Positions 2,322 through 64,000 of a DNA stretch of 64,000 nucleotides are shown one piece after another. Positions within the stretch are counted from its first letter, which is position 1. Each line of letters starts with the position of its first letter. The notes below the pieces were generated by a model. That model was not told where the DNA came from and did no database searches. It saw only the letters and a program-made list of their open reading frames with translations. Where the stretch lies: contig JALNZC010000018.1 of NCBI GenBank assembly GCA_023229525.1, positions 4,242-68,241 of the forward strand, in the 5' to 3' direction. This stretch comes from Bacteroidales bacterium. Lineage in GTDB: Bacteria; Bacteroidota; Bacteroidia; Bacteroidales; FEN-979. Made by a program: the position numbers and the translations under genes.

Positions 2322-3284
2322 ATGCCCTTACAAAAAACCCTTTTTCTCATTTTTTTACTCCTGATAACGGGGTCCTCCTGTCAGACCGACCTGTCAAAAA
2401 ATCATTCCTTATCCAGTCTCCCGATTCCCGGACAAAAAGAAAAAGCATTGGATAACAAACCTTTACTGGCGGCTCTCGAATCGCTTCGGAAAGACCCTTC
2501 CTTAAAAAACGGTTCATTGGGTTACCTGGTGGTAGATATCACTGCGAAAAATCCGGTTGTCGTTGCAGATTATCGTTCCAAATGGCCAATGATGCCTGCA
2601 TCAACCCTGAAAATTTTTGTAACCGGCGCCGCACTTGATATTCTCGGAAAAGAAATCATTCCTGAAGTCACCATCACCAACCTAATGAGTGTGAATTGGC
2701 GTTCATCAAAATTACTCCGGAAAATCGGGGGAAAGGTTTATAACACCGCCACTACCGTTGGAGGTGTTAAAGCTATTCTCGACTTCTGGGAAGAGCGGGG
2801 AGTTGATACCCATGGGATGTTTTTTTACGATGGTAATGGCTTGTCACGCAGGAACGCGATCTCCCCGAAGCAACTGGTTGACGCTCTATATGCCATCAGG
2901 ACCTCCCCCAGTTTTCACTATTTCTATGAATCACTTCCTCTTGCAGGCCTGACCGGCACTTTGCATAAGGCCATGAAAGGGACCGCAGCTGAAGGCCGCA
3001 TCCATGCAAAGACAGGCACCATTTCAAAGGTGAAAAGTTTCGCCGGATATATCTCAACCCTATCCGGACGGAGGCTGGTATTTTCCCTGCTTGTCAACGA
3101 TTTCGATTGCCGTCCGAAATTGATGAAGAAGAAACTCGAGGCCGTACTGATTAAAATGGCGGAGATTAAGAAGCAGGATGCAGGATGCAGGATACAGGAT
3201 AAAAGGTCGCTGCGCTCCCGATGCTGGATGCTGGATGATAAAAGAGGGATGATTTCAAAGGGTGGATGGTTGGCCGAGAATTAG
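2322..3284 (+). CDS. D-alanyl-D-alanine carboxypeptidase/endopeptidase (PBP4 / peptidase S13 family), lipoprotein-type signal
   Basis: S-x-x-K active-site motif (PASTLKIF) and KTG motif (HAKTGTISKV). I prefer the ATG at 2322 (MPLQKTLFLIFLLLITGSSC signal) over the TTG at 2244. The last ~35 codons read through heptamer array 3173-3238. Confidence 0.75.
   Translation: MPLQKTLFLIFLLLITGSSCQTDLSKNHSLSSLPIPGQKEKALDNKPLLAALESLRKDPSLKNGSLGYLVVDITAKNPVVVADYRSKWPMMPASTLKIFVTGAALDILGKEIIPEVTITNLMSVNWRSSKLLRKIGGKVYNTATTVGGVKAILDFWEERGVDTHGMFFYDGNGLSRRNAISPKQLVDALYAIRTSPSFHYFYESLPLAGLTGTLHKAMKGTAAEGRIHAKTGTISKVKSFAGYISTLSGRRLVFSLLVNDFDCRPKLMKKKLEAVLIKMAEIKKQDAGCRIQDKRSLRSRCWMLDDKRGMISKGGWLAEN
3173..3238 (+). 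repeat. family A heptamer array (gcaggat/gctggat) with a GGTCGCTGCGCTCCCGATG leader module, inside the 3' end of the PBP4-like ORF
   Basis: Read directly: gcaggatgcaggatgcaggatacaggat aaaaggtcgctgcgctcccgatgctggatgctggatga. Confidence 0.9.
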
Positions 3285-5116: not shown

Positions 5117-5179
5117 GGGTGCAAAGATAGAAGATTAAGGTTAAATAACTTCCGTTTTTGCCGGCCTGTTTTTATTTTT

Positions 5180-5187
5180 TACCTTTG
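5180..5187 (+). promoter_or_regulatory. candidate Bacteroidota -7 promoter box (TAnnTTTG) for rbfA
   Basis: tacctttg ends 4 nt before the rbfA ATG (5192), which would imply a near-leaderless transcript. This is a motif match only. Confidence 0.3.
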
Positions 5188-5533: not shown

Positions 5534-5672
5534 AGGTCGCTTCGCTCACGATGCTGGATGAATGGTCGCTTCGCTCCCGATACTGGATGCTGGATGCTGG
5601 ATGCTGGATGCTGGATAAAAAATATTTCCGTTGGAGTCCCGTCATTTGAATTTTGAGTATTAAATTTTGAGG
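5534..5672 (+). repeat. composite intercistronic element: family A heptamer array (ctggatg) with two GGTCGCTTCGCTC(A/C)CGAT leader modules, then a TTTGAATTTTGAG-type U-rich module abutting the next start codon
   Basis: Begins the nucleotide after the rbfA stop (5533). The array runs to ~5617. The module catttgaattttgagtattaaattttgagg (5643-5672) ends 7 nt before the ATG at 5680. Confidence 0.85.
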
Positions 5673-5679
5673 TTGCAAA

Positions 5680-6501: not shown

Positions 6502-6503
6502 AA

Positions 6504-6680
6504 ATGAGTGAATGAAGGAATGAAGGAATGAAGGAATGAAGGAATGAAGGAATGAAGGATTGAGTGAATGAGTGATTGAGTGATTGTGTGGGTGAATCAA
6601 TGAATGATTGACAAAGTATCAAACTGCAATAAACGTCTTTAACTTTTAACTTTTGACTTTTGATTTTTGACTTTTGAATT
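6504..6680 (+). repeat. composite intercistronic element: family C octamer array (gaatgaag) - ATGAATGA core - family D module (cttttgac/ttttgatt units)
   Basis: The gaatgaagg array starts 3 nt after the methyltransferase stop (6501). Core: gaatcaatgaatgattgac. The module ctttaacttttaacttttgacttttgatttttgacttttga runs into the TTG start of the next gene (6674). Confidence 0.9.
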
Positions 6681-10156: not shown

Positions 10157-10774
10157 ATGATTAAAATAAAGATTAAAACACAGATTAAAACTTTATGTGT
10201 TTTTTGTGGCTCCAGTCTTGGAAACCAACAGGTTTTTACCGCAAAAGCCGGAGAATTGGCGGAAATTCTGTGTAATAAGAATATCACGTTGGTTTATGGC
10301 GGCGCCAATGTAGGGCTGATGCAGGTACTGGCCGATACAATGCTTGCATCTGGAGGAAAGGTTGTTGGCGTTATGCCTAAATCGCTTGTGGAGCGGGAAG
10401 TTGCTCACAAACAACTTACGGAAATGCACATCGTGGCAGATATGCAGGAACGGAAAGCGCTCATGGCCGATCTCTCGGATGCATTTATCGCCCTTCCGGG
10501 GGCCTATGGCACACTGGACGAACTTTTTGAGATCCTGACATGGAACCAGCTCGGAATCATAAAAAAACCCATCGGTCTGCTCAATATCGCGAATTTTTTT
10601 ACACCCTTGCTTGCTATGCTCGATAATGCCGTAAAGGAAAGATTTCTCCGGATCGAACACCGAAACATTCTTCAGGTAGCCGAGGATATTTATGAGCTGT
10701 TTGAGAAACTCGAATCCTTTCAGCCGGTCACCGCCGAAAAATGGATCGAACGACTTAAACAAGGAAAAATCTAA
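10157..10774 (+). CDS. LOG-family (TIGR00730) nucleotide phosphoribohydrolase
   Basis: LCVFCGSS, YGGANVGLM and PGAYGTLDELFE motifs. The ATG at 10157 is chosen because the upstream extension overlaps the M20 gene. Confidence 0.85.
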   Translation: MIKIKIKTQIKTLCVFCGSSLGNQQVFTAKAGELAEILCNKNITLVYGGANVGLMQVLADTMLASGGKVVGVMPKSLVEREVAHKQLTEMHIVADMQERKALMADLSDAFIALPGAYGTLDELFEILTWNQLGIIKKPIGLLNIANFFTPLLAMLDNAVKERFLRIEHRNILQVAEDIYELFEKLESFQPVTAEKWIERLKQGKI

Positions 10775-10903
10775 TTTGAAAATTTGAAAATTTGAAGATT
10801 TGGGGATTTGAGGATTTGAAGATTGAGGGATTTGAGAATGAATATTAGTTTTGATTTTTGAGTTGTGGTTTTGAACTTTGAATTTTGAGCTTTGAACTTT
10901 GAC
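10775..10903 (+). repeat. composite family D element: (gatttgaa/gatttgag) array - ATGAATAT core - TTTTGATTTTTGAGTTGTGGTTTTGAA module
   Basis: Begins the nucleotide after the LOG stop (10774) and ends 10 nt before the next ATG (10913). The right half is near-identical to 25612-25676. Confidence 0.9.
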
Positions 10904-10912
10904 TATACAAAG

Positions 10913-11470
10913 ATGTTGATTATTGGAATAACCGGGACGTTGGGAGCAGGAAAAGGAACTGTGGTTGAATATCTTGTCAGTGAAAAGGGTTTTCATCATT
11001 ATTCAGTCAGGGCATATCTTTTGGAATTCATACGGAAAAGCGGGATGCCGGAAAACCGGGACAGTATGTTCCGACTGGCCAATGAACTCCGCTCCCGGTA
11101 TGGGCCATCATATGTAACCGACCAGTTATATCTTCAGGCCCGAGCGGCTGAGCATCGTTGTATTATCGAAAGTATCCGTACTCCGGGCGAAGTCATATCG
11201 TTGCGGGAAAAGGGGAATTTCTGCCTTTTTGCCGTGGATGCCCTGCCTGAAACCCGCTACCGTCGCATTCAACTCCGGCAATCGGAAACAGATGGGATCT
11301 CCTATGAAACCTTTCTTGAAAACGAGCAGCGAGAAATGGGAACCACGGATCCCAATATTCAAAATATCACCGAATGTATACGACTGGCCGATTTTGTTTT
11401 TTATAATGATGAAGAAAAGGAGGACTTGTTCCGGGAAGTGGAAAAGGCCCTGCGGCAAATTAGTTTGTAA
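10913..11470 (+). CDS. P-loop nucleotide/nucleoside kinase-like protein (dephospho-CoA-kinase-like AAA family)
   Basis: The N-terminal Walker A motif GITGTLGAGKGT and the ~185-aa size fit the small NMP-kinase fold. The specific substrate cannot be called from sequence alone. Confidence 0.6.
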   Translation: MLIIGITGTLGAGKGTVVEYLVSEKGFHHYSVRAYLLEFIRKSGMPENRDSMFRLANELRSRYGPSYVTDQLYLQARAAEHRCIIESIRTPGEVISLREKGNFCLFAVDALPETRYRRIQLRQSETDGISYETFLENEQREMGTTDPNIQNITECIRLADFVFYNDEEKEDLFREVEKALRQISL

Positions 11471-15774: not shown

Positions 15775-15797
15775 TGGATTTTGATTTTGAATTAATG

Positions 15798-15916
15798 TAT
15801 GAACCCCAGGCTTTGGACCCAAATTCCACCCAGAGTGCTGGGGAATTTATCCTGAGCGCCTTAACCCCTGCACCCTTTCTCCTTAAGGAGGGGCCGGGAA
15901 CATGAGGTGTTTAAAG
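15798..15916 (+). repeat. dispersed ~120-nt MITE/REP-like element, copy R1
   Basis: tatgaaccccagg...ggggaatttatcctga...aacccctgcaccctttctccttaaggagg...gaggtgtttaaag. It aligns by eye to the copies at 22216, 31781 and 37203. Confidence 0.8.
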
Positions 15917-16777: not shown

Positions 16778-18805
16778 TTATTCGTCCCTCGTCCTTCGTC
16801 CTTCGTCCCTCGTCTTTCGTCCCTCGTCCTTCGTCCCTCGTCCCTCGTCCTTCGTCATTTTTATCCGGCTATGACGCCTGCTGTATCCGAAATAAATAAT
16901 CAGACCAACAGAAAGCCAGATGAGAAAACGCAACCAGTTGGTCACACCGAGATGGGCCATGAGGTAAAAGTTGGTCAGCAGTCCGAGAACAGGGATCAGG
17001 GAAAGTTGTTTCCAAATACCCACAAATGTTAGGATGATTGCTGAAAGGATAAAGATCAGGATGGGGAATTCCTGGCTGATTAAAGTGGTAATTCCAGATT
17101 TTGGATACTGGATACTGGATGCTGGATGCTGGATGCTGGATACTGGATGCTGGATGAATGAGGGGATGAACTTTTCAAGCTCCGGTGGTCGCCAGGAAAA
17201 GAGCAGAACAAAAATTCCGATCCAGATCAGGGGAAGAAAATAGCGGCTGTTGAGGTACGGGATATTGAAACCCTTTTCCGTAGGAAATTTTTCATTTTTT
17301 CTCCCGTTACCATCGAGTACAAGTACTCCACCAGAAACGAGGATGAATGCAAAAAGGGTCCCGATACTTGTTAAATCGGTAACTTCTGTAAGATTCATGA
17401 AAAGGGATGGAATTGCAACCAATATCCCTGCGATGATCGTAGAAAACCAGGGGGTTTTGTACCGCGAATGAATCTTTGAAAACGACTTTGGGAGTAAACC
17501 GTCGCGACTCATACTCATCCATATCCGGGGTTGTCCCACCTGAAAAACCAGCAGGACACTGGCCATGGCAACCACAGCGCTGAGGGCGATCACGCCGGAA
17601 AGTTTTGTGAGATGAAGTTTTTGAAAGGCATATGCCAGTGGATCTCCTACGCCCAACTCGCTGTAATGAAGCATTCCCGTTAAAACAAGACTGATCGTGA
17701 TGTACAGAACAGTAGTGATGACCAGCGCCAGGATGATTGCCCTGGGAAGGTCGCGGCGGGGATTACGGCATTCTTCGGCAGTCGTGGAAATGGCATCAAA
17801 ACCGATATAGGCAAAAAACACGCCTGACACCCCTTTTAACACGCCCGACAGGCCATTGGGCGCAAAAGGATGCCAGTTCCCGGGGTCAATATAAAATGAA
17901 CCTACCACAATGATGAGCAATAAAATCCCGATCTTCAGCAATACCATGGTGTTACTGGCCACTTTGGTTTCATAAATTCCAATGTATACCAGTGCGGAAA
18001 TGAATACCACGATGGAAAATGCAGGGATATCGGCAATGATGCGGATTCCCGCAATCACGGGTGCGTTTTGCCATGCCCTGAATGATTCCTGTAGCGCATC
18101 GGAGAGACTTCCCATGGGTATCCCTTTGGCGAGCTCATTCACAACGGTATGATAACCCCGTGAGGCTGACAGGTAATCCACACTTAGATATTCCGGAATG
18201 TGAAGTCCGGTTCCGTTGACGAATCCGGTAAAGTAATCCGACCATGAAATGGCAACGGCAATATTGCCAATGGCATATTCCATGATCAAATCCCAGCCGA
18301 TGATCCAGGCAATCAACTCACCGAAACTCGCATATGCATATGTGTAGGCACTTCCGCTGATAGGTATGACGGAGGCGAACCGGGCATAGCATAAGGCCGA
18401 AAACCCGCAGGCCATCGCTGTAAAGAGAAAAAGAAGAGAAACTGCCGGACCACCACTGGCAGCGGCATTTCCGATGGTACTGAAGATTCCCGCACCAATG
18501 ACCGCTGCTATACCCAATCCCGTCAGGTCATAAACGGTCAGGTTTTTTTTAAGCTCCGTTCCATCTCCTTCCCGGCTGTGGGCGTCCTGCAAAATACGGG
18601 CGATCGATTTTTTACGGAAGAGGTGGAAATTTACCACGCCGGAAATTTTTGATAAAGGTAAAATATTTCCGTTCAAATCCGGATCAATCCCATAGATGTT
18701 CATACTGATTTTGATTAGCTTTGCCCGTAAATTCTCATTTCCTTTCTGGTGAGATATCAATCTTGCCGGGTTCATATGCTTGCAAATAAGTTTTGGGTAT
18801 TCCAA
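16778..18805 (-). CDS. APC-superfamily amino-acid permease (cationic amino-acid transporter type with a C-terminal 2-TM extension)
   Basis: GIGAAVIGAGIFSTIG, FAYIGFDAISTTAEE, and the C-terminal module NWLRFLIWLSVGLIIYFGYSRRHS. It contains heptamer array 17101-17157 in a loop and ends in array 16781-16856. Start uncertain; alternative Mets are at 18775 and 18703. Confidence 0.85.
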   Translation of the reverse strand: MEYPKLICKHMNPARLISHQKGNENLRAKLIKISMNIYGIDPDLNGNILPLSKISGVVNFHLFRKKSIARILQDAHSREGDGTELKKNLTVYDLTGLGIAAVIGAGIFSTIGNAAASGGPAVSLLFLFTAMACGFSALCYARFASVIPISGSAYTYAYASFGELIAWIIGWDLIMEYAIGNIAVAISWSDYFTGFVNGTGLHIPEYLSVDYLSASRGYHTVVNELAKGIPMGSLSDALQESFRAWQNAPVIAGIRIIADIPAFSIVVFISALVYIGIYETKVASNTMVLLKIGILLLIIVVGSFYIDPGNWHPFAPNGLSGVLKGVSGVFFAYIGFDAISTTAEECRNPRRDLPRAIILALVITTVLYITISLVLTGMLHYSELGVGDPLAYAFQKLHLTKLSGVIALSAVVAMASVLLVFQVGQPRIWMSMSRDGLLPKSFSKIHSRYKTPWFSTIIAGILVAIPSLFMNLTEVTDLTSIGTLFAFILVSGGVLVLDGNGRKNEKFPTEKGFNIPYLNSRYFLPLIWIGIFVLLFSWRPPELEKFIPSFIQHPVSSIQHPASSIQYPKSGITTLISQEFPILIFILSAIILTFVGIWKQLSLIPVLGLLTNFYLMAHLGVTNWLRFLIWLSVGLIIYFGYSRRHSRIKMTKDEGRGTKDEGRKTRDEGRRTRDE
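16781..16856 (-). repeat. family B heptamer array (gacgaag/gacgagg, ~11 units) forming the last ~25 codons of the permease ORF
   Basis: The plus strand reads ttcgtccctcgtccttcgtcc... It translates as KDEGRGTKDEGRKTRDEGRRTRDE followed by the stop. Confidence 0.9.
17101..17157 (+). repeat. family A heptamer array (8 units of ctggatg/ctggata) embedded antisense in the permease CDS
   Basis: ttggata ctggata ctggatg x3 ctggata ctggatg x2. It is translated from the minus strand as SFIQHPVSSIQHPASSIQYP. Confidence 0.9.
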
Positions 18806-21597: not shown

Positions 21598-21743
21598 AAG
21601 TGAGGGAATGAAGGATTGAAGGAAAGAAGGATTGATTTATTGAATACCTGATGGGCGAGGGACGAAGGACGAAGGACGAGGGACGAAGGACGAAGGACGA
21701 AGGATGAAAGCATAAAATGGATGCCGGATGCTGGATACTGGAT
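21598..21743 (+). repeat. junction of three array families: C (gaatgaagg, 21598-21636), B (ggacgaa, 21654-21708), A (ctggatg, 21716-21743)
   Basis: Read directly. Lies between the dxs start and the DUF59 gene stop. A further ggagata-type unit block follows at 21766-21790. Confidence 0.9.
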
Positions 21744-21792
21744 AATACCAGGGGTTCTTGTAAATATCACCTATCACCTATCTCCCATCCCT

Positions 21793-22215: not shown

Positions 22216-22346
22216 TCAATTGGTATGAACCCCAGGGCAAACACTGGACCCGCATTCCGCCCCAATGGGCGGGGAATTTACCCTGAAAACCTCAACCCCT
22301 GCACCCCTTCTCCTTGAGGAGAAGGCCGGGAGATGAGGTGATTAAA
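22216..22346 (+). repeat. dispersed MITE/REP-like element, copy R2
   Basis: caattggtatgaaccccagg...ggggaatttaccctga...aacccctgcaccccttctccttgaggagaaggccgggagatgaggtgattaaac. It includes an 8-bp stem, ccttctcc/ggagaagg. Confidence 0.8.
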
Positions 22347-23909: not shown

Positions 23910-24248
23910 TCAGTTCAAGTGTTTTAGATTCTGCAGGGCTTCGGGCATAAATTTATGTACTCCGGCCACGATTTGGCAACCATCCAGTTCAGGACATTCC
24001 CCGCAGGTTACATATCCTTTGGTATCTGCACATTTGCGTATTTCACATTGCAAACAATGAGAGAATTTCACCCCTTCAACACGACAACCGGTACAGTTAA
24101 TCGTCTCCGGGGTAATATCCGGAGCATTATACATTTTTTGCCACTTTTCCGCAGTGGCTTTCCGCAGGTCATCATCATTCTGTATTGTAGCATTCCGGGC
24201 ATCGCAAACCGAACAATCCAATCCGCAACAGGCAATTAGTTTTTCCAT
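23910..24248 (-). CDS. cysteine-rich DUF3795-like protein
   Basis: 112 aa. The N-terminal IACCGLDCSVCDA plus three further Cys pairs resemble the DUF3795 pattern as I recall it. Confidence 0.65.
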   Translation of the reverse strand: MEKLIACCGLDCSVCDARNATIQNDDDLRKATAEKWQKMYNAPDITPETINCTGCRVEGVKFSHCLQCEIRKCADTKGYVTCGECPELDGCQIVAGVHKFMPEALQNLKHLN

Positions 24249-24314: not shown

Positions 24315-25535
24315 TTATTCCAGCATTTTCTTTGCCTTTACAATTGCCGAAACCAATAAATCGATCTCTTGAAGGGTATTATAAAAAGCGAACGAAGCCC
24401 GCACAGTGCCGGGAATCTTCAAATAATTCATGAGGGGCATTGCACAGTGGTGACCGGTTCTGACAGCGATACCCATCTTGTCAATGATGGTCCCGACATC
24501 ATATGGATGGATATCGCCGATGAGGAAAGAGATCAGGCTGGTTTTGTGCACTGCCGTACCATAAATTTTCATACCATCAAGGTTTGCAAGCTTTCCGGAG
24601 GCATATTTAAGCAGGTTCTCCTCATACATTGCAATATTTTCCATTCCCAGCTCTTTCAGATAATGAACGGCGGCACGAAGCCCTGCAACGCCTTCCACAT
24701 TAGGGGTTCCGGCCTCAAACTTAAACGGCAACTCATTAAACGTGGTATGATCGACATATACCTCTTTGATCATCTCTCCGCCCAGCTGATAGGGGGGCAA
24801 TTCCTCCAAATACTTCTCCTTCCCGTAAAGCACGCCAATTCCCATGGGAGCATACATTTTATGTCCTGAAAAACAATAAAAATCACAATCAAGATCCTGC
24901 ATATCCACCTGCAAATGTGAAACCCCCTGCGCACCATCGATCAAAACCGGAATATTATTCCGGTGCGCAACAGCGATGATCTCCTTCACCGGATTAATAG
25001 TTCCCAAAACATTCGATACATGTGTCAGAACAATGAGACGGGTCTTTTCATTGATCATCCCGTATAATTCATCCAGATCCAGTTCCCCCCGTTCATTGAT
25101 TCCCGCAACCCTGAATCCGGCGCCATGTTCCAGACACATCTGTTGCCATGGAACAAAGCTTGAATGGTGCTCCATGATGGTGGAGATCACTTCGTCACCG
25201 GGTTTTATGTACCGTTTTCCAAATGATGATGCTACCAGGTTAAGCGATTCCGTGGCGCCTTTGGTAAAGATAATCTCATGTGTACTCCGTGCATTGATGA
25301 ATTCGCGGATCTCCTTTCGCGCCTCTTCATATGCTTCCGTCGCCTTCATACTCAGGTAATGCACTCCGCGGTGGATATTGCAATTGTCATGTTCATAATA
25401 ATGACGGATGGCATCAATAACCTGTACCGGCTTTTGTGTGGAAGCGGCATTGTCGAAGTACACCAGCGGACGATTGTAAATCTGCTGATGCAGGATAGGA
25501 AACTCGGATCTTATTTTATCGATGGGAAAAAACAC
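24315..25535 (-). CDS. sufS: cysteine desulfurase, SufS type
   Basis: 406 aa with the PLP lysine in FSGHKMYAPMGIG and the catalytic Cys in RTGHHCAMPL. Confidence 0.95.
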   Translation of the reverse strand: MFFPIDKIRSEFPILHQQIYNRPLVYFDNAASTQKPVQVIDAIRHYYEHDNCNIHRGVHYLSMKATEAYEEARKEIREFINARSTHEIIFTKGATESLNLVASSFGKRYIKPGDEVISTIMEHHSSFVPWQQMCLEHGAGFRVAGINERGELDLDELYGMINEKTRLIVLTHVSNVLGTINPVKEIIAVAHRNNIPVLIDGAQGVSHLQVDMQDLDCDFYCFSGHKMYAPMGIGVLYGKEKYLEELPPYQLGGEMIKEVYVDHTTFNELPFKFEAGTPNVEGVAGLRAAVHYLKELGMENIAMYEENLLKYASGKLANLDGMKIYGTAVHKTSLISFLIGDIHPYDVGTIIDKMGIAVRTGHHCAMPLMNYLKIPGTVRASFAFYNTLQEIDLLVSAIVKAKKMLE

Positions 25536-25552
25536 TTGGATTTACGAGTTTT

Positions 25553-25676
25553 AGATTGAAAAAAGATTTGAAAATTTGAAGATGTGAAAATTTGAAAATG
25601 TGAAGATTTGAAAATGAATATATAATTTTGATTTTTGAGTTGTAGTTTTGAATTTTGAATTTTGAATTTTGAGTTT
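25553..25676 (+). repeat. composite family D element (gatttgaa/gatgtgaa array - ATGAATAT core - TTTTGATTTTTGAGTTGTAGTTTTGAA module), antisense to the suf genes
   Basis: Fills the sufD-sufS spacer. The right half is near-identical to 10838-10903. Confidence 0.9.
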
Positions 25677-25693
25677 TTATCCCCTATTTCCTA

Positions 25694-27103
25694 TCATATT
25701 TTCGACATGTCGATTTTGAATTCCACCGGTTGTTCGGGAGTACTGCAGTGAAGTACACATTGTTCGCAGATCTGGAGCTCGCCCTGGAGACGTTTTTTGA
25801 CCATATCCTCTATCCGCTGGCGCAACTGGGGAATGGCGATCTTCCCAACGATCTCATTGGCAAAGGCAAACATCAGCAACATGCGGGCACTCTCTTCGCC
25901 GATACCGCGCTGGCGAAGATAAAATAATGCTTCTGAGTCGAGCTGGCCGGTTGTGGAACCGTGAGAACATTTAACGTCGTCGTTATAGATCTCGAGGAAT
26001 GGTTTTGAATTGACCCGTGCCGTATCAGTAAGTAAAATATTTTTATTGGTCTGGCGTGCGTCGGTCCCGGTGGAATTCCTGCGGACCAGCACATGCCCGT
26101 TGAACACCCCGTGTGCATTTTCATCCAGAATTCCTTTGAAGATTTCATTGCTTGTGCAATCCGGAGAAGCATGATCCACAAACACATGATTATCGATATG
26201 CTGCCGGCGATCCATCAGGTAAAGTCCGTAGATATCGGCATTCCCGTGAGTTCCATTGAACAATACCCGGATGTTGTTGCGAAGCAGTCCACCGTTGAGC
26301 GACAGGTAGTGTGATTCAAGATTGGCAGCGGCTTCCAATTGAAAATAGACGGTGCTGATCAGGGTGCTGTTGTTGTTCAGGTTTTGCAGTTTATAGTGAT
26401 CCAAAAAAGCGTTTTCACCCAGGAATATCTCGGTGACAATGTTCGAAAAGCTGGCCTGCTGGTTGTAGGAGTCGTCGCAATGCACAAGTGACAGACTGGC
26501 ATTGTCCCCGATCACGATGAGGTTTCGTGACTGCAGGAAGAGGTTTTCATAGTGATGGATCACGTTGATCAGTTGTACCGGTTTTGTACTTTTCACCCCC
26601 GCCGGCACATAGATAAAAATCCCGTCCTGTGCAAAGGCCGTATTCATCGCTGTGAATACTTCGGCCGTATCTCCGGTGGCCCGGCTGTAATACTTATCAA
26701 CCAGGGCCGGATATTTCTTTTTCGCTTCAGCCAGGCTACCCATGATGATCCCGTTGCCAAGCTCCATCAGGGGTACCTCTTTCGACACATACCATCCGTT
26801 CAACTGTCCGATGATGGCGGTATCGAGATGGGGAATATTACATCGGAATACCTTTTGAACATCTTCTTCCGGAAGGGGATGAAGGTAATAATCATATCCG
26901 CGTTCAAGGCTATCCTTCAGATCTGTATGACGCCAGGCTTCCATCTTTGTGTCGGGAAATCCAAGTTTTCCGAATAAGATGAATGCTTTATCACGTATCT
27001 CAGAAAGTAAGGCGGTATCGTTCGATGCCAAAACCTGACGGTTGGATTCGAATAAATGTACCATCCGTTCGAGAGTAATACTTTGTTGAACTGTTGTTTC
27101 CAT
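25694..27103 (-). CDS. sufD: Fe-S cluster assembly protein SufD
   Basis: SufB/D-family beta-helix C-terminal region (NKNILLTD...AKVNSKPFLEIYNDDVKCSHG). I chose the start at 27103 (METTVQQ) because the longer ORF overlaps sufC. Confidence 0.9.
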   Translation of the reverse strand: METTVQQSITLERMVHLFESNRQVLASNDTALLSEIRDKAFILFGKLGFPDTKMEAWRHTDLKDSLERGYDYYLHPLPEEDVQKVFRCNIPHLDTAIIGQLNGWYVSKEVPLMELGNGIIMGSLAEAKKKYPALVDKYYSRATGDTAEVFTAMNTAFAQDGIFIYVPAGVKSTKPVQLINVIHHYENLFLQSRNLIVIGDNASLSLVHCDDSYNQQASFSNIVTEIFLGENAFLDHYKLQNLNNNSTLISTVYFQLEAAANLESHYLSLNGGLLRNNIRVLFNGTHGNADIYGLYLMDRRQHIDNHVFVDHASPDCTSNEIFKGILDENAHGVFNGHVLVRRNSTGTDARQTNKNILLTDTARVNSKPFLEIYNDDVKCSHGSTTGQLDSEALFYLRQRGIGEESARMLLMFAFANEIVGKIAIPQLRQRIEDMVKKRLQGELQICEQCVLHCSTPEQPVEFKIDMSKI

Positions 27104-27872: not shown

Positions 27873-27874
27873 GA

Positions 27875-28142
27875 TCTGCTAATTAACAAATTCAAAACTC
27901 AAAAGTCAAAAGTCAAAACTAAAGTTCAAAACTCAAAAGTAAAAAATTTGCTTAAATCGGACTATCCACCACCAAAGGAGGTGGCTTTTCGCCCGATTTA
28001 TGGCTTCGCCACCGCAAATTCTTTTTAAAAAACCGGCAAAGCCAAACATACATTACCACCGTCAAAGACGGTGGGTTTTAAAGTCGTACTAAAATTCATC
28101 TTCAAATTTCCAAATTTCCAAATTTTCAAATCTCCAAATCAT
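27875..28142 (-). repeat. family D composite element interrupted by a ~150-nt unique insert that carries two hairpins
   Basis: On the minus strand: a gatttgga/gatttgaa array (28142-28095), a gATGAATTTT core, the insert (28094-27946), then a ttttgagttttgaac/ttttgac module (27945-27875) ending 3 nt before the sufC ATG. Hairpins: ccaccgtc-aaa-gacggtgg and ccacc...ggtgg. Confidence 0.85.
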
Positions 28143-28145
28143 TAA

Positions 28146-31780: not shown

Positions 31781-31886
31781 CAATTGGCATGAACCCCAGG
31801 CCCTGGACCCGAATTCCTCCTTCTTCTTTCGTCCTTCGTCTTTCGTCCTTCGTCCTTCTTAAGGTCCGGGGATGAGATGATTAAAT
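31781..31886 (+). repeat. dispersed element copy R3, a hybrid whose central part is replaced by family B heptamers in minus orientation
   Basis: The left end (caattggcatgaaccccaggccctggacccgaattcc) and right end (ggtccggggatgagatgattaaat) match R1/R2. The middle reads cttctttcgtccttcgtctttcgtccttcgtccttctt. Confidence 0.8.
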
Positions 31887-37202: not shown

Positions 37203-37341
37203 TACCCCAGGCCGGTGAATAAATGCTCAAAACAACAAGGCAAGCACTCGATCCGGATTCTGCACTATAGGTGCAGGGAATTTATCCGAAGAACTCAACC
37301 CCAACCTCAAGGAGAAGGGGTGAAAGGATGAGTTGGTTAAC
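37203..37341 (+). repeat. dispersed element copy R4 (diverged)
   Basis: ccccaggcc...gcagggaatttatccgaagaactcaaccccaacctcaaggagaaggggtgaaaggatgagttggttaac. It starts the nucleotide after the DUF1697 stop. Confidence 0.7.
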
Positions 37342-42452: not shown

Positions 42453-42620
42453 GCTCGCTACGCTCGCGATGAGCTCGCTTTGCTCGCTGATGCTGGATGC
42501 AGGATGCAGGATACAAGATGCAGGATACAAGATGCAGGATGCAAGATGCAGGATACAAGATGCAGGATGCAGGATACAAGATGCAGGATACAAGATACAA
42601 GATTCTGGATACTGAATACT
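42453..42620 (+). repeat. family A heptamer array (gcaggat / acaagat variants, ~17 units) preceded by a GCTCGCTACGCTCGCGATG-type leader module
   Basis: Begins the nucleotide after the peptidase stop (42452). The acaagat variant unit is shared only with the inverted array at 45328-45434. Confidence 0.9.
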
Positions 42621-42660
42621 CCCCTCTCCTTAAGGAGAGGGGTCAGGGGGTGAGGTGCCA
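42621..42660 (+). repeat. partial dispersed-element copy R5 with a perfect 22-nt palindrome
   Basis: cccctctccttaaggagagggg (42621-42642) followed by tcagggggtgaggtgcc. This corresponds to the right end of R1/R2. Confidence 0.7.
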
Positions 42661-51500: not shown

Positions 51501-51537
51501 CAGATGTGATCATTAATAATCGGGCAAAGATAAGAAA

Positions 51538-51708
51538 AGATGGTGAGATGGCGAAATGGTGAGATGGTGAGATGGTGAGATGGTGAGATGGTGAGCTCGT
51601 GAGCTCGTGAGTTGGTGAACTGGTGAGCTACCGAGTTTGCGTGTTAAAAAAACTTTTAACTCGCCAGTTCACCAGTTCACCATTTCGCCATCTCAAAATC
51701 TCGCCAAC
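51538..51708. repeat. family E octamer array followed by an inverted partial array, forming a long imperfect hairpin
   Basis: Forward units run 51538-51630 (gagatggt, gagctcgt, gaactggt variants). The inverted units (ccagttcaccagttcaccatttcgccatctc) run 51661-51708. Hand pairing: 51601-51637 with 51658-51694, including 17 contiguous pairs, and loop 51638-51657. Confidence 0.85.
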
Positions 51709-55176: not shown

Positions 55177-55217
55177 GTCACGGGTTGCGGGTTGCGAGTT
55201 ACGGGTTATGGGTTGCA
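55177..55217 (+). repeat. family H heptamer/octamer units (cgggttg / gggttac / gggttat)
   Basis: gtcacgggttgcgggttgcgagttacgggttatgggttgcag. A related caagttgcaagttgcgggtg occurs at 63649-63670. Confidence 0.7.
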
Positions 55218-62468: not shown

Positions 62469-63647
62469 ATGGAACTATTCATTAAAATTCTCTACGTGCT
62501 TCCAATCTATCAATCGGCGATTCTTGCTATTTTATTATTTACTTCCGGCAGTCGTGAAAGTTGCTGTTCGAAGCTGATCATGGGTGCATTTCTTTCCACC
62601 ACCGGTATCTATTTTTCCTTCAATTTGTTGTACAGCTTAAGTAGTTTTGATTTGCTGAAGAAACTCTATTTTCTGATCCTTCCCATTATCCTGGCCTTTA
62701 TACCCTTATTTTATCTCTACCTGGAATCCATTACCACTCCGGGTTTTCATTTCCGGAAGAAGCAGTTATGGCATTTTTTACCTGCAGCCATTTTTTTTAT
62801 TTTAATGAGTCCCTATTTCTTTGCCACGGAACATGAAAAATATTTGTATATCAACCATGATTTCATACGACCGGGCATGAGTCCGGTCATACTATACCTT
62901 CTTATTGTTTACATTAGTGGAACTTACCTTGTGTCCAACCTGCAACTCGGATATTACGTATACAGGTCCCTACAACTTTTTCACCGGCACAAGATCTATA
63001 TTGTCAACCGTTTCTCTTATACCGAAAACATTCACCTTGACTGGATCAAGTCGTTGATATTTTGCTTTGTCGTTTTTTTTCTGATCAATGAATTGCTTTA
63101 TATCACTGGTATAAAGCAACATCTTTTTTCAGGGATTTTTTATAATGTATCCATGCTGGGGGTTATTCTTTTCGCCGGGTATCATGGGATGGAGCAAAAG
63201 AACCTTGAGAAGGAAGAGAAGGAAGAAACAGAAATACAAGCGGAGATATCTGCAGAAGTTCCGGAAAAGATCAAATATTCAGGTTCATCTCTTACGGTTG
63301 CACAGAAAAAGGCGCTTATCGCGAAGCTTGAGTTACTGATCCTGGATGAGAAAATCTATACTAACAAAGAACTGAGCATTGAAGATGTCGCTCAACGCCT
63401 GGAGACCAATTCAAAATATATTTCACAGATACTGAATGAGCATTACCAGAAAAATTTCTTTACTTATATTAATACTTACCGCGTTGAAGAAGCACAGCGT
63501 TTATTGTCGTCCGACAAAACCCGGAAATACTCCATTCTCGGCATTGCGCAGATGGCCGGGTTTACTTCCAAATCATCGTTTTATGAAGCATTTAAAAATA
63601 TTACAGGAACAACGCCCAATGAGTTCAGGAAGAAATTAAAGTGCTAA
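62469..63647 (+). CDS. AraC-family transcriptional regulator with an N-terminal multi-TM sensor-like domain
   Basis: 392 aa. About 6-7 TM segments (aa 1-235), an acidic linker, and a C-terminal AraC HTH (SIEDVAQRL...YINTYRVEEAQRLL...IAQMAGFTSKSSFYEAFKNITGTTPNEFR). Confidence 0.85.
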   Translation: MELFIKILYVLPIYQSAILAILLFTSGSRESCCSKLIMGAFLSTTGIYFSFNLLYSLSSFDLLKKLYFLILPIILAFIPLFYLYLESITTPGFHFRKKQLWHFLPAAIFFILMSPYFFATEHEKYLYINHDFIRPGMSPVILYLLIVYISGTYLVSNLQLGYYVYRSLQLFHRHKIYIVNRFSYTENIHLDWIKSLIFCFVVFFLINELLYITGIKQHLFSGIFYNVSMLGVILFAGYHGMEQKNLEKEEKEETEIQAEISAEVPEKIKYSGSSLTVAQKKALIAKLELLILDEKIYTNKELSIEDVAQRLETNSKYISQILNEHYQKNFFTYINTYRVEEAQRLLSSDKTRKYSILGIAQMAGFTSKSSFYEAFKNITGTTPNEFRKKLKC

Positions 63648-63648
63648 T

Positions 63649-64000
63649 GCGCAAGTTGCAAGTTGCGGGTGAGATGGCGAGATGGTGAGATGGTGAGATG
63701 GTGAAATGGTGAGATGGTGAGATGGTGAAATGGTGAGATGGTGAGATGGTGAAATGGTGAAATGGTGAAATGGTGAGATGGTGAGATCGTGAGAATAGTG
63801 AGATGGTGAGATGGTGAGATGGTGAAATGGTGAGATGGTGAAATGGTGAAATGGTGAGATGGTGAGATGGTGAGATGGTGAGATGGTGAGATGGTGAAAT
63901 GGTGAGATGGTGAGATGGTGAGATGGTGAAATGGTGAGATCGTGAGAATAGTGAGATGGTGATAAGGTAAACTGGCGAATTGACGAACTGGCGAAATTAT
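63649..64000 (+). repeat. family H units followed by the longest family E octamer array (about 40 units; truncated by the window end)
   Basis: gcgcaagttgcaagttgcgggtg, then gagatggt/gaaatggt units from 63671. The variant doublet gagatcgt-gagaatagt occurs at 63783 and 63936. Degenerate gaactggc/gaattgac units lie at the end. Confidence 0.9.

Follow-up and report, generated by a model that had tools for sequence, protein, structure and literature searches.

The 138-nt spacer between a LOG-family gene and a P-loop kinase-like gene of an uncultured Bacteroidales bacterium (contig JALNZC010000018.1 of assembly GCA_023229525.1, of which a 64-kb stretch, hereafter the window, was analysed) is probably not a conserved translation device but one of three copies of a two-array cassette of about 125-140 nt which this lineage gained recently; we put the probability of this reading at about 0.6. 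What was observed is the repeat anatomy of the spacer, the presence of three homologous copies, one of them inverted, their absence from the orthologous junctions of related genomes, a genome-wide class of similar arrays and a lack of structure. On this reading, the cassette belongs to the known class of long simple-sequence repeats (LSSRs), with units of 5-11 nt, which has spread through the non-coding DNA of this lineage. The analysis covers 64 kb of this genome and some 150 kb from relatives, and the gene map was made from open reading frame (ORF) and codon-usage calls, with a Pfam check on 30 of the 48 ORFs. The spacer (copy c1) and its neighbours are laid out as follows.

LOG-family gene: 10157-10774, + strand; Pfam Lysine_decarbox, stop codon TAA at 10772-10774.
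P-loop kinase-like gene: 10913-11470, + strand; Pfam AAA_18, ATG at 10913.
Whole element c1: 10775-10912, + strand; from reading the sequence and from Tandem Repeats Finder (TRF).
Left array of c1: 10774-10839, + strand; about eight units of 8 nt, GATTTGAR, namely AATTTGAA / GATTTGAG / GATTTGGG.
Core of c1: 10838-10848, + strand; ATGAATATTAG, AT-rich, from reading the sequence.
Right array of c1: 10849-10902, + strand; about eight units of 7 nt, TTTTGAN (TTTTGAT, TTTTGAG, TTGTGGT, TTTGAAC and so on).
Unique 10 nt ctatacaaag: 10903-10912, + strand; between the right array and the kinase ATG.

The purine-rich array, ATGAAT core and TTTTGA module which the initial annotation described at this place are all borne out, TRF giving the left array a period of 8 with 6.4 copies (and also a period of 24 with 2.4 copies) and the right one a period of 7 with 7.9 copies. 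The left array begins inside the LOG stop codon, contains no C and has one TGA per unit, and the right array is 54% T and ends 10 nt 5′ of the kinase ATG, the A residues at −3 and −6 of which are supplied by the unique 10 nt and not by the array. The + strand of c1 is nearly C-free (A36 C3 G33 T56 over 128 nt), and both arrays share the pentamer TTTGA, on one strand and at regular spacing. The ATG of the core opens a 7-codon mini-ORF (MNISFDF and a stop, 10838-10861), and 3-codon ORFs start from the ATGAAT cores of other spacers introduced below (MNI at 25614-25625; MNF at 28097-28086 on the − strand; MND at 6600-6611; each followed by a stop); these tiny ORFs are probably a by-product of repeats rich in TGA and TAA.

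Two further spacers of the window, both within the suf operon, carry homologous copies.

c2, full homologous copy: 25536-25693, + strand; between sufS and sufD, inverted with respect to the suf operon.
Parts of c2: + strand; left array 25566-25615, core ATGAAT 25614-25619, right array 25624-25677.
sufD: 25694-27103, − strand.
sufS: 24315-25535, − strand.
c3, sense-oriented copy: 27873-28145, − strand; in the sufB-sufC spacer, split by a 150-nt insert.
Parts of c3: − strand; left array 28098-28140, core GATGAATTTTAGT, right array 27888-27945.
Insert of c3: 27946-28095, − strand; 150 nt, unique, GC-richer, placed after the core.

Over 122 nt, copies c1 and c2 share 82% identity (E 9e-24), and in the core and right module they agree at about 44 of 48 positions, the irregular unit TTGTRGT included, which substantiates the near-identity first noticed between the right half of c1 and 25612-25676. 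Since the irregular core and TTGTRGT are common to the copies, we are dealing, as was first proposed, with a defined repeated element and not with slippage that occurred independently three times. A family model built from the three copies and scanned over the window with nhmmer recovered c1, c2 and c3 and nothing further, c3 appearing as two matches (28145-28088 and 27958-27871), with 15 nt between the end of its right array and the sufC ATG (27872). The orientation is not fixed: c1 and c3 are sense, whereas c2 is antisense to sufD and sufS, as annotated from the start, and because it lies on the + strand and both genes on the − strand, suf mRNA holds the G-free complement of c2. All three copies are hosted by junctions of same-strand genes, in keeping with the preference initially proposed, although a tally of three copies has no statistical power, either for this preference or for one for start codons, in a window where 55% of the junctions are same-strand. 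The insert of c3 has three GC-rich hairpins, including ccaccgtctttgacggtgg and ccacctcctttggtggtgg (folding z-score −5.0), and one of its stems, at 28045-28033 and followed by a T-run, is terminator-like and stands between sufB and sufC; the insert has no second copy in the window or among the retrieved loci.

The layout was originally claimed for five junctions, and the remaining two do not belong to the family.

Methyltransferase to ftsX-like spacer, look-alike: 6502-6673, + strand; (GAATGAAG)n, ATGAATGATTGAC, 30 unique nt, (CTTTTGA)n.
rbfA to methyltransferase spacer, non-member: 5534-5679, + strand; a 29-nt unit twice, (GATGCTG) ×5.4, three interrupted TTTTGA units.

The first of these is merely similar, with the layout of the cassette and a related right array, which continues into the TTG start at 6674, but with GAATGAAG as left unit, and the c1-c3 model finds no match in it. 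The second has unrelated left arrays and no central ATGAAT, and its last TTTTGA unit lies about 8 nt 5′ of the ATG. At the sense junctions, the distance between the end of the right array and the start codon is −8, about 8, 10 and 15 nt; the U-rich module said to lie within 0-10 nt of the start in four of five cases thus does so at three junctions.

Comparison with relatives suggests that the cassette is young. Identical proteins were found only in JGI 3300037067 and Logan SRR18595301, two further assemblies of this strain whose short-read contigs end inside cassettes. The nearest other genomes are those of uncultured Bacteroidales, with identities of 77-85% for SufD (85% being the best beyond the same-strain assemblies), 89-91% for SufB and 74-75% for the kinase. 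In the seven related Bacteroidales loci compared, the spacers are either short or filled with unrelated arrays.

LOG to kinase: in relatives an overlap, TAATG (−1), 30 and 36 nt; in the window 138 nt.
rbfA to methyltransferase: in relatives 58 nt; in the window 146 nt.
Methyltransferase to ftsX: in relatives 52 nt; in the window 172 nt.
sufB to sufC: in relatives 30, 33, 69, 101, 135 and about 160 nt; in the window 273 nt.
sufD to sufS: in relatives 33, 36 and 76 nt; in the window 158 nt.

The LOG-kinase spacer of 36 nt is that of L125. Where relatives have long spacers, these hold (CAATAGT)n in L122, (GCGATAG)n and (TGCATTC)n in L123, (GCAAACAAT)×6 and (TTTTTAA)×3, adjoining sufC, in L190, and GC-rich hairpin repeats in L191. 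Scanned over about 130 kb from relatives L121-L127, the c1-c3 family model detects no copy. Array bases reach a density of 24.6 per kb in the window, compared with 0-8.8 in the relatives. This absence from orthologous junctions, together with the higher array density of the window, points to a recent gain, and the lack of the cassette at matching junctions of close relatives argues against a conserved intercistronic device; the element first called conserved is so within this genome and not beyond it. Outside this genome the module has a single relative, in L115 (SufB 89%), found by scanning a genome collection with the 18-mer TTTTGATTTTTGAGTTGT, where a right array clearly related to the module of the window lies just 5′ of sufC. 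That scan returned more than 118 matches in all phyla, 77 of 118 being inside ORFs and mostly due to chance, and only L115 was informative; in 22 of the 41 intergenic matches across bacteria the module points towards a start and in 17 it does not, so that orientation is not fixed here either. A metagenome scan with the core and right module, ATGAATATN{2,5}TTTTGATTTTTGA, gave 60 matches, all of them due to chance, in a collection outside which the window's own copies lie; neither scan yielded a further copy of the cassette. What the clade does share is a general proneness to array-filled spacers, in the suf operon above all.

This proneness is also apparent within the window, where TRF, searching for periods of 5-9 nt, found 23 separate arrays, the observed periods being 7 and 8. 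Twenty of these are non-coding although non-coding DNA makes up 11% of the window (binomial p about 1e-16), and array bases account for 1406 of the 7134 non-coding bases (20%). About six unit families recur, GATGCWG at six loci, GGACGAR at four, GGTGAGAT at three, GAATGAAG at two, GATTTGAR at three and TTTTGAN at five to seven. Given this concentration outside genes and the small number of recurring families, c1-c3 are an instance of a genome-wide class.

A mechanism can be sketched in which the arrays would grow by replication slippage, and a few units and cassettes would spread as copies between spacers, recombination or template switching being the probable route. The copies may persist because they do little harm, having stops in all sense frames, no folding and ribosomes around them that do not need a Shine-Dalgarno sequence. 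At the LOG-kinase junction, the insertion would have split an ancestrally coupled pair (TAATG overlap or 30-36 nt) into cistrons 138 nt apart, as a by-product and not a purpose; translation of the kinase would now initiate independently, at the unique A-rich 10 nt behind an unstructured U-rich leader, and its transcription may gain from a −7-like box within the cassette.

As far as the survey of Mrazek et al. (2007) is summarised in PMC4679880, LSSRs are intergenic, sporadic and lineage-specific, heptamers are dominant among their 5-11-nt units, and slippage is presumed. The cassette resembles them in its head-to-tail 7-8-nt units, which TRF found in c1, c2 and c3 alike, in a length far beyond chance, in being non-coding, as are most arrays here, and in being lineage-specific; the excess over chance is seen both in the 23 arrays per 64 kb and in the 18-mer TTTTGATTTTTGAGTTGT, which has 12 matches in the window at ≤3 mismatches where 0.18 are expected. 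It differs from them in that few unit families recur at many loci and fill a fifth of the non-coding DNA, and in that two arrays are joined and the cassette itself was copied (three copies, 82% identity). According to PMC4679880, arrays of heptamers and LSSRs lie between genes, often immediately before a start codon, and are missing from close relatives, in which the spacers are shorter. The TAACTGA repeats of marine Beggiatoaceae, Cyanobacteria and five Bacteroidetes (MacGregor 2015, PMC4679880), for which a translational role was proposed, are likewise intergenic, mostly forward within a few nt of a start, with stops in all forward frames and occasional reverse copies, and likewise absent from close relatives with shorter spacers. 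The TAACTGA dimer TAACTGATAACTGA has no match in the window at ≤2 mismatches, and what we find here differs by its many unit families, its two-array cassette and the lack of a consistent composition of start-adjacent arrays; as for orientation, the right arrays of the two sense copies end 10 and 15 nt before their start codons and the third copy is inverted, with three copies only to compare. The STRRs reportedly described by Mazel et al. in 1990, which are said to be short tandemly repeated repetitive heptamers of cyanobacteria, include the units CCCCAGT, TTGGTCA and CAACAGT. They are similar in that tandem arrays from a handful of heptamer families are scattered over the intergenic DNA of one lineage, but they belong to another phylum and have other units (those just given are absent from the TRF list), and 8-nt units are here as common as 7-nt ones; the neighbouring proteins carry the label Bacteroidales or Bacteroidota in their sources. 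Both cyanobacterial STRRs (named in PMC2670836) and the dispersed intergenic repeats of the REP/REPIN and MITE types (PMC8049555) come to mind, the latter being also short, non-coding and multi-copy, located in spacers in either orientation and apt to break short-read assemblies. The body of the cassette, however, consists of tandem arrays, with no Watson-Crick palindrome, terminal inverted repeat or transposase signature, and its identity with a MITE or REPIN was rejected, c1 and c2 having no inverted repeat save one chance-like 10-nt pair, and folding z-scores of −1.1 and −2.3. A clear target-site duplication is lacking, TTAAT flanking c3 only, and no RAYT or transposase was seen in the window among the 30 Pfam-checked ORFs.

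Several results weigh against such a neutral interpretation. The strongest of them concerns polarity: of the 13 multi-array spacers in the window and in L115, L121-L126, L190 and L191, 12 have a purine-rich array on the 5′ side and a pyrimidine-rich one on the 3′ side (10 of 11 if c1-c3 are counted once), the remaining one being flat and none reversed, and it is mainly this order that keeps our confidence at the level given above. A purine-rich array followed by a U-rich module is therefore a general property of the spacers of this clade, and the rule, being identical on both strands, also covers the inverted c2. Of the arrays next to stop codons, about 16 are rich in purines on the sense strand and four in pyrimidines. 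All three copies conserve TA-N-TTTTG where the core meets the right array; T-rich arrays directly adjoin the sufC start in the window, L115 and L190; and at least three TTTGA within 70 nt 5′ of a start are found in the sense orientation at six genes and in antisense at one, a count that is not significant. Also, c1 and c2 are base-for-base equal, with no copy-number variation, in three assemblies, which stem from only two datasets and perhaps one population.

The alternative that survives best, unlikely as we hold it, is that of a portable promoter-plus-leader cassette, with a −7 box at the boundary of core and right array, a TTG/TTTG of the left array at −33 and the right array as U-rich leader, the insertion of which would provide the next cistron with a transcription start of its own and uncouple it from the upstream gene.

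−7-like box TAGTTTTG of c1: 10846-10853, + strand; fits the Bacteroidetes TAnnTTTG, 59 nt 5′ of the kinase ATG.

The Bacteroidetes sigma-A promoter reads TTTG (−33) / TAnnTTTG (−7) (PMC6847099), the two elements being separated by about 19-21 nt, and 29 of the 65 TAnnTTTG sites in the window fall within the 11% non-coding DNA; all but two of these 29 point at a gene start, mostly 16-75 nt off, the exceptions being the boxes of c2. Judging by this distribution, TAnnTTTG clearly acts as a signal in this genome. The cassette offers TTG-N20-TAGTTTTG in c1 and, in c3, TACTTTTG and TAGTTTTG at 61 and 41 nt before sufC, and the box is retained in all three copies; a divergent promoter region also has TAGTTTTGATTTTTTGA, 32 nt 5′ of the gene for biotin carboxylase. 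The reuse of promoters as mobile units is on record (PMC3575422), and the −7 matches of both sense copies lie at a typical distance from the downstream start codon, although the promoter of the cassette is putative and one copy is reversed. The boxes of c2 aim into the 3′ end of sufD and would yield antisense RNA. Moreover, the first n of the box in c1 is a G, and mapped F. johnsoniae promoters, with the consensus TAHHTTTG, almost never have G in this third position (TAG…) (PMC6847099), whilst the −33 elements, N20 from the box, are weak matches (ATTG in c1, TGTG in c2). The related module of L115 has no canonical box, and relatives express the same genes without the cassette. A sigma-70 promoter scan, irrelevant to this phylum, was discarded, its counts being equal to those of shuffles. 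Elsewhere in the window, the −7 boxes TACCTTTG and TATCTTTG at 5180-5187 and 5122-5129 sit only 4-5 nt ahead of the starts called for rbfA and a divergent ABC transporter gene; either the mRNAs of these genes are leaderless or their true starts are further downstream.

It is tempting to extend such a function to all two-array spacers, which would then be lineage-wide mobile modules, working in either orientation, that rebuild operon junctions, uncouple cistrons and set their relative expression. We consider this a long shot. If it were true, each module would place a C-poor purine tract after the stop and an unstructured pyrimidine tract with a −7 box before the next start, and the strand-symmetric purine-first rule would be its design signature. 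Pairing between the arrays does not account for this order, and a strand rule by which arrays would be C-poor on the mRNA (the anti-Rho idea) amounts to a tendency only, c2, 21601-21744 and 55181-55216 being exceptions. Purine-first order is at any rate a simple polarity rule open to testing.

About as improbable is what the initial annotation proposed, namely that the U-rich TTTTGA array is a translation-initiation platform; it would act as a standby site or bind ribosomal protein bS1 or a protein of the cold-shock type. At four same-strand junctions 0-15 nt separate the end of the array from the start, and its RNA is unstructured by folding; Bacteroidia work without Shine-Dalgarno pairing and the structure of the initiation region tunes their translation (PMC6847099), which suits this part of the proposal. 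The sense excess of TTTGA runs and the T-rich arrays at sufC, both given above, could be read the same way, and a like proposal was made for heptamer repeats (PMC4679880). However, the array is missing at the orthologous junctions of relatives, the inverted c2 leaves sufS without TTTTGA upstream, and the ratio of six to one is not significant. Nor does the supposed rule of U-rich sequence next to starts hold in the clade, whose start-adjacent arrays are A-rich about as often as T-rich (six against eight, and one C-rich). The positive determinants of Bacteroidia translation known from experiment, besides low structure, are adenines at −3, −6, −12 and −13 and not U-tracts, U at −3 being negative (PMC6847099).

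Far less probable still is an array of about 16 binding sites per cassette, in either orientation, for a DNA- or RNA-binding protein that reads TTTGA every 7-8 nt, with a role in the nucleoid or in expression. Both arrays do present one pentamer on one strand at regular spacing, the purine-first order on both strands hints at a constraint independent of the direction of transcription, and CspB-type proteins are able to bind heptamer repeats, one per unit (PMC4679880). But no candidate binder emerged, the neighbouring genes being housekeeping by Pfam, many unrelated unit families behave alike, and the cassette is not conserved in relatives.

Least credible of all is a strand-specific RNA hairpin in which A-U and G-U pairs would join the purine-rich left array to the U-rich right one for processing, stabilisation or termination: UUUGAA is self-complementary with wobble pairs, the + strand RNAs of c1 and c2 form hairpins of −23.5 and −24.8 kcal/mol with the complementary strands unfolded, the arrays of c3 make the outer stem of its predicted fold, the differences of the left arm are mostly A/G and compatible with U pairing, and a genuine array hairpin exists at 51501-51708, but against dinucleotide shuffles the + strand z-scores of c1 and c2 (−1.1 and −2.3) are weak, periods of 8 and 7 nt cannot hold a pairing register, c2, if transcribed within the suf operon, is the non-folding strand, there is neither a GC-rich stem nor a U-tail, and the look-alike spacers and the two-array spacers of relatives are less stable than their shuffles (z +0.1 to +2.2; +0.6 for 6502-6673 and +2.2 for 5534-5679); pairing was rejected as a general explanation. 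The cassette has no Rfam match, Rfam 15 giving none in the whole window at the gathering score, and intrinsic terminators were sought in c1 and c2 and not found, the only ones being in the c3 insert, with counts no higher than those of shuffles.

If the cassette is a recent repeat, as we favour, some caution in annotation is called for, since spacers of this sort would be lineage-specific newcomers and not conserved regulatory RNAs, and their arrays break short-read assemblies and extend or interrupt open reading frames. This uncultured Bacteroidales clade would join the few lineages in which 7-8-nt arrays fill much of the non-coding DNA (heterocystous cyanobacteria, large sulfur bacteria), and it provides related genomes with and without arrays at matching operon junctions, the suf junctions having been colonised repeatedly with different units each time. 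Insertions that split coupled cistrons would also amount to a natural experiment on how ribosomes independent of Shine-Dalgarno sequences face long untranslated spacers.

Two other arrays of the window deserve a line each.

Largest array of the window: 63668-63962, (GGTGAGAT) ×36.6, 295 nt; just 3′ of the + strand gene 62580-63647, the window ending 38 nt further on.
True array hairpin: 51501-51708, between two − strand genes; GGTGAGAT-type units and their exact complements, −74.9 kcal/mol, z −9.9.

No other arrays in the window genuinely pair with one another; a −7 box, TATCTTTG, comes after this hairpin, 24 nt ahead of the following gene start. Arrays resembling the right module, (TTTTGAN)n, also occur in spacers of Patescibacteria metagenome-assembled genomes (L047, L084, L092, L009, L064), some of them paired with a true complement, AAAACTCAAAAC ... 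GTTTTGAG; this likeness may be convergence, the loci having been selected by the 18-mer.

Arrays within genes are seen in the amino-acid permease ORF 16778-18703 (− strand), which holds heptamer arrays at 17102-17156 and 16782-16856. The unit (GCATCCA) ×7.9 lies between the AA_permease_2 and AA_permease_C domains and (GGGACGA) ×10.7 forms the last ~25 residues, the frame being unbroken and the protein 641 aa long against 567-590 aa in the orthologues of relatives. The S13-peptidase/PBP ORF 2322-3284 has a 3′ end made of (GCAGGAT) and (GATGCTG) arrays (3173-3237), its Pfam match stopping at residue 262 of 320, before the arrays, and was probably lengthened by them.

A second dispersed family, a repeat of ~120 nt with a GC-rich hairpin and no Rfam match, is found in the window at 15790-15910, 22223-22340, 31789-31880, 37203-37336 and 42620-42660, with the consensus tgaaccccagg..ggacccRaattcc..ggggaatttaYcctga..aacccctgcaccc..ctccttaaggag..ggccggg..atgaggtg. 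One copy has (TTCGTCC)n in place of its interior, and another consists of the 3′ part only, after a (GATGCAG)n array; pieces of related hairpins occupy the sufB-sufC and sufC-sufD spacers of L191 (2619-2687 and 3441-3500). The suf cluster has also been repeatedly rearranged within the clade: a MutS2-like gene (MutS_V) stands between sufD and sufS in two relatives (L190, 4955-6781, and the DLU34Gl1 record), an opposite-strand M16 peptidase takes the sufD/sufS position in L191, and the window has a DUF3795 gene (23910-24248) between sufS and sufE.

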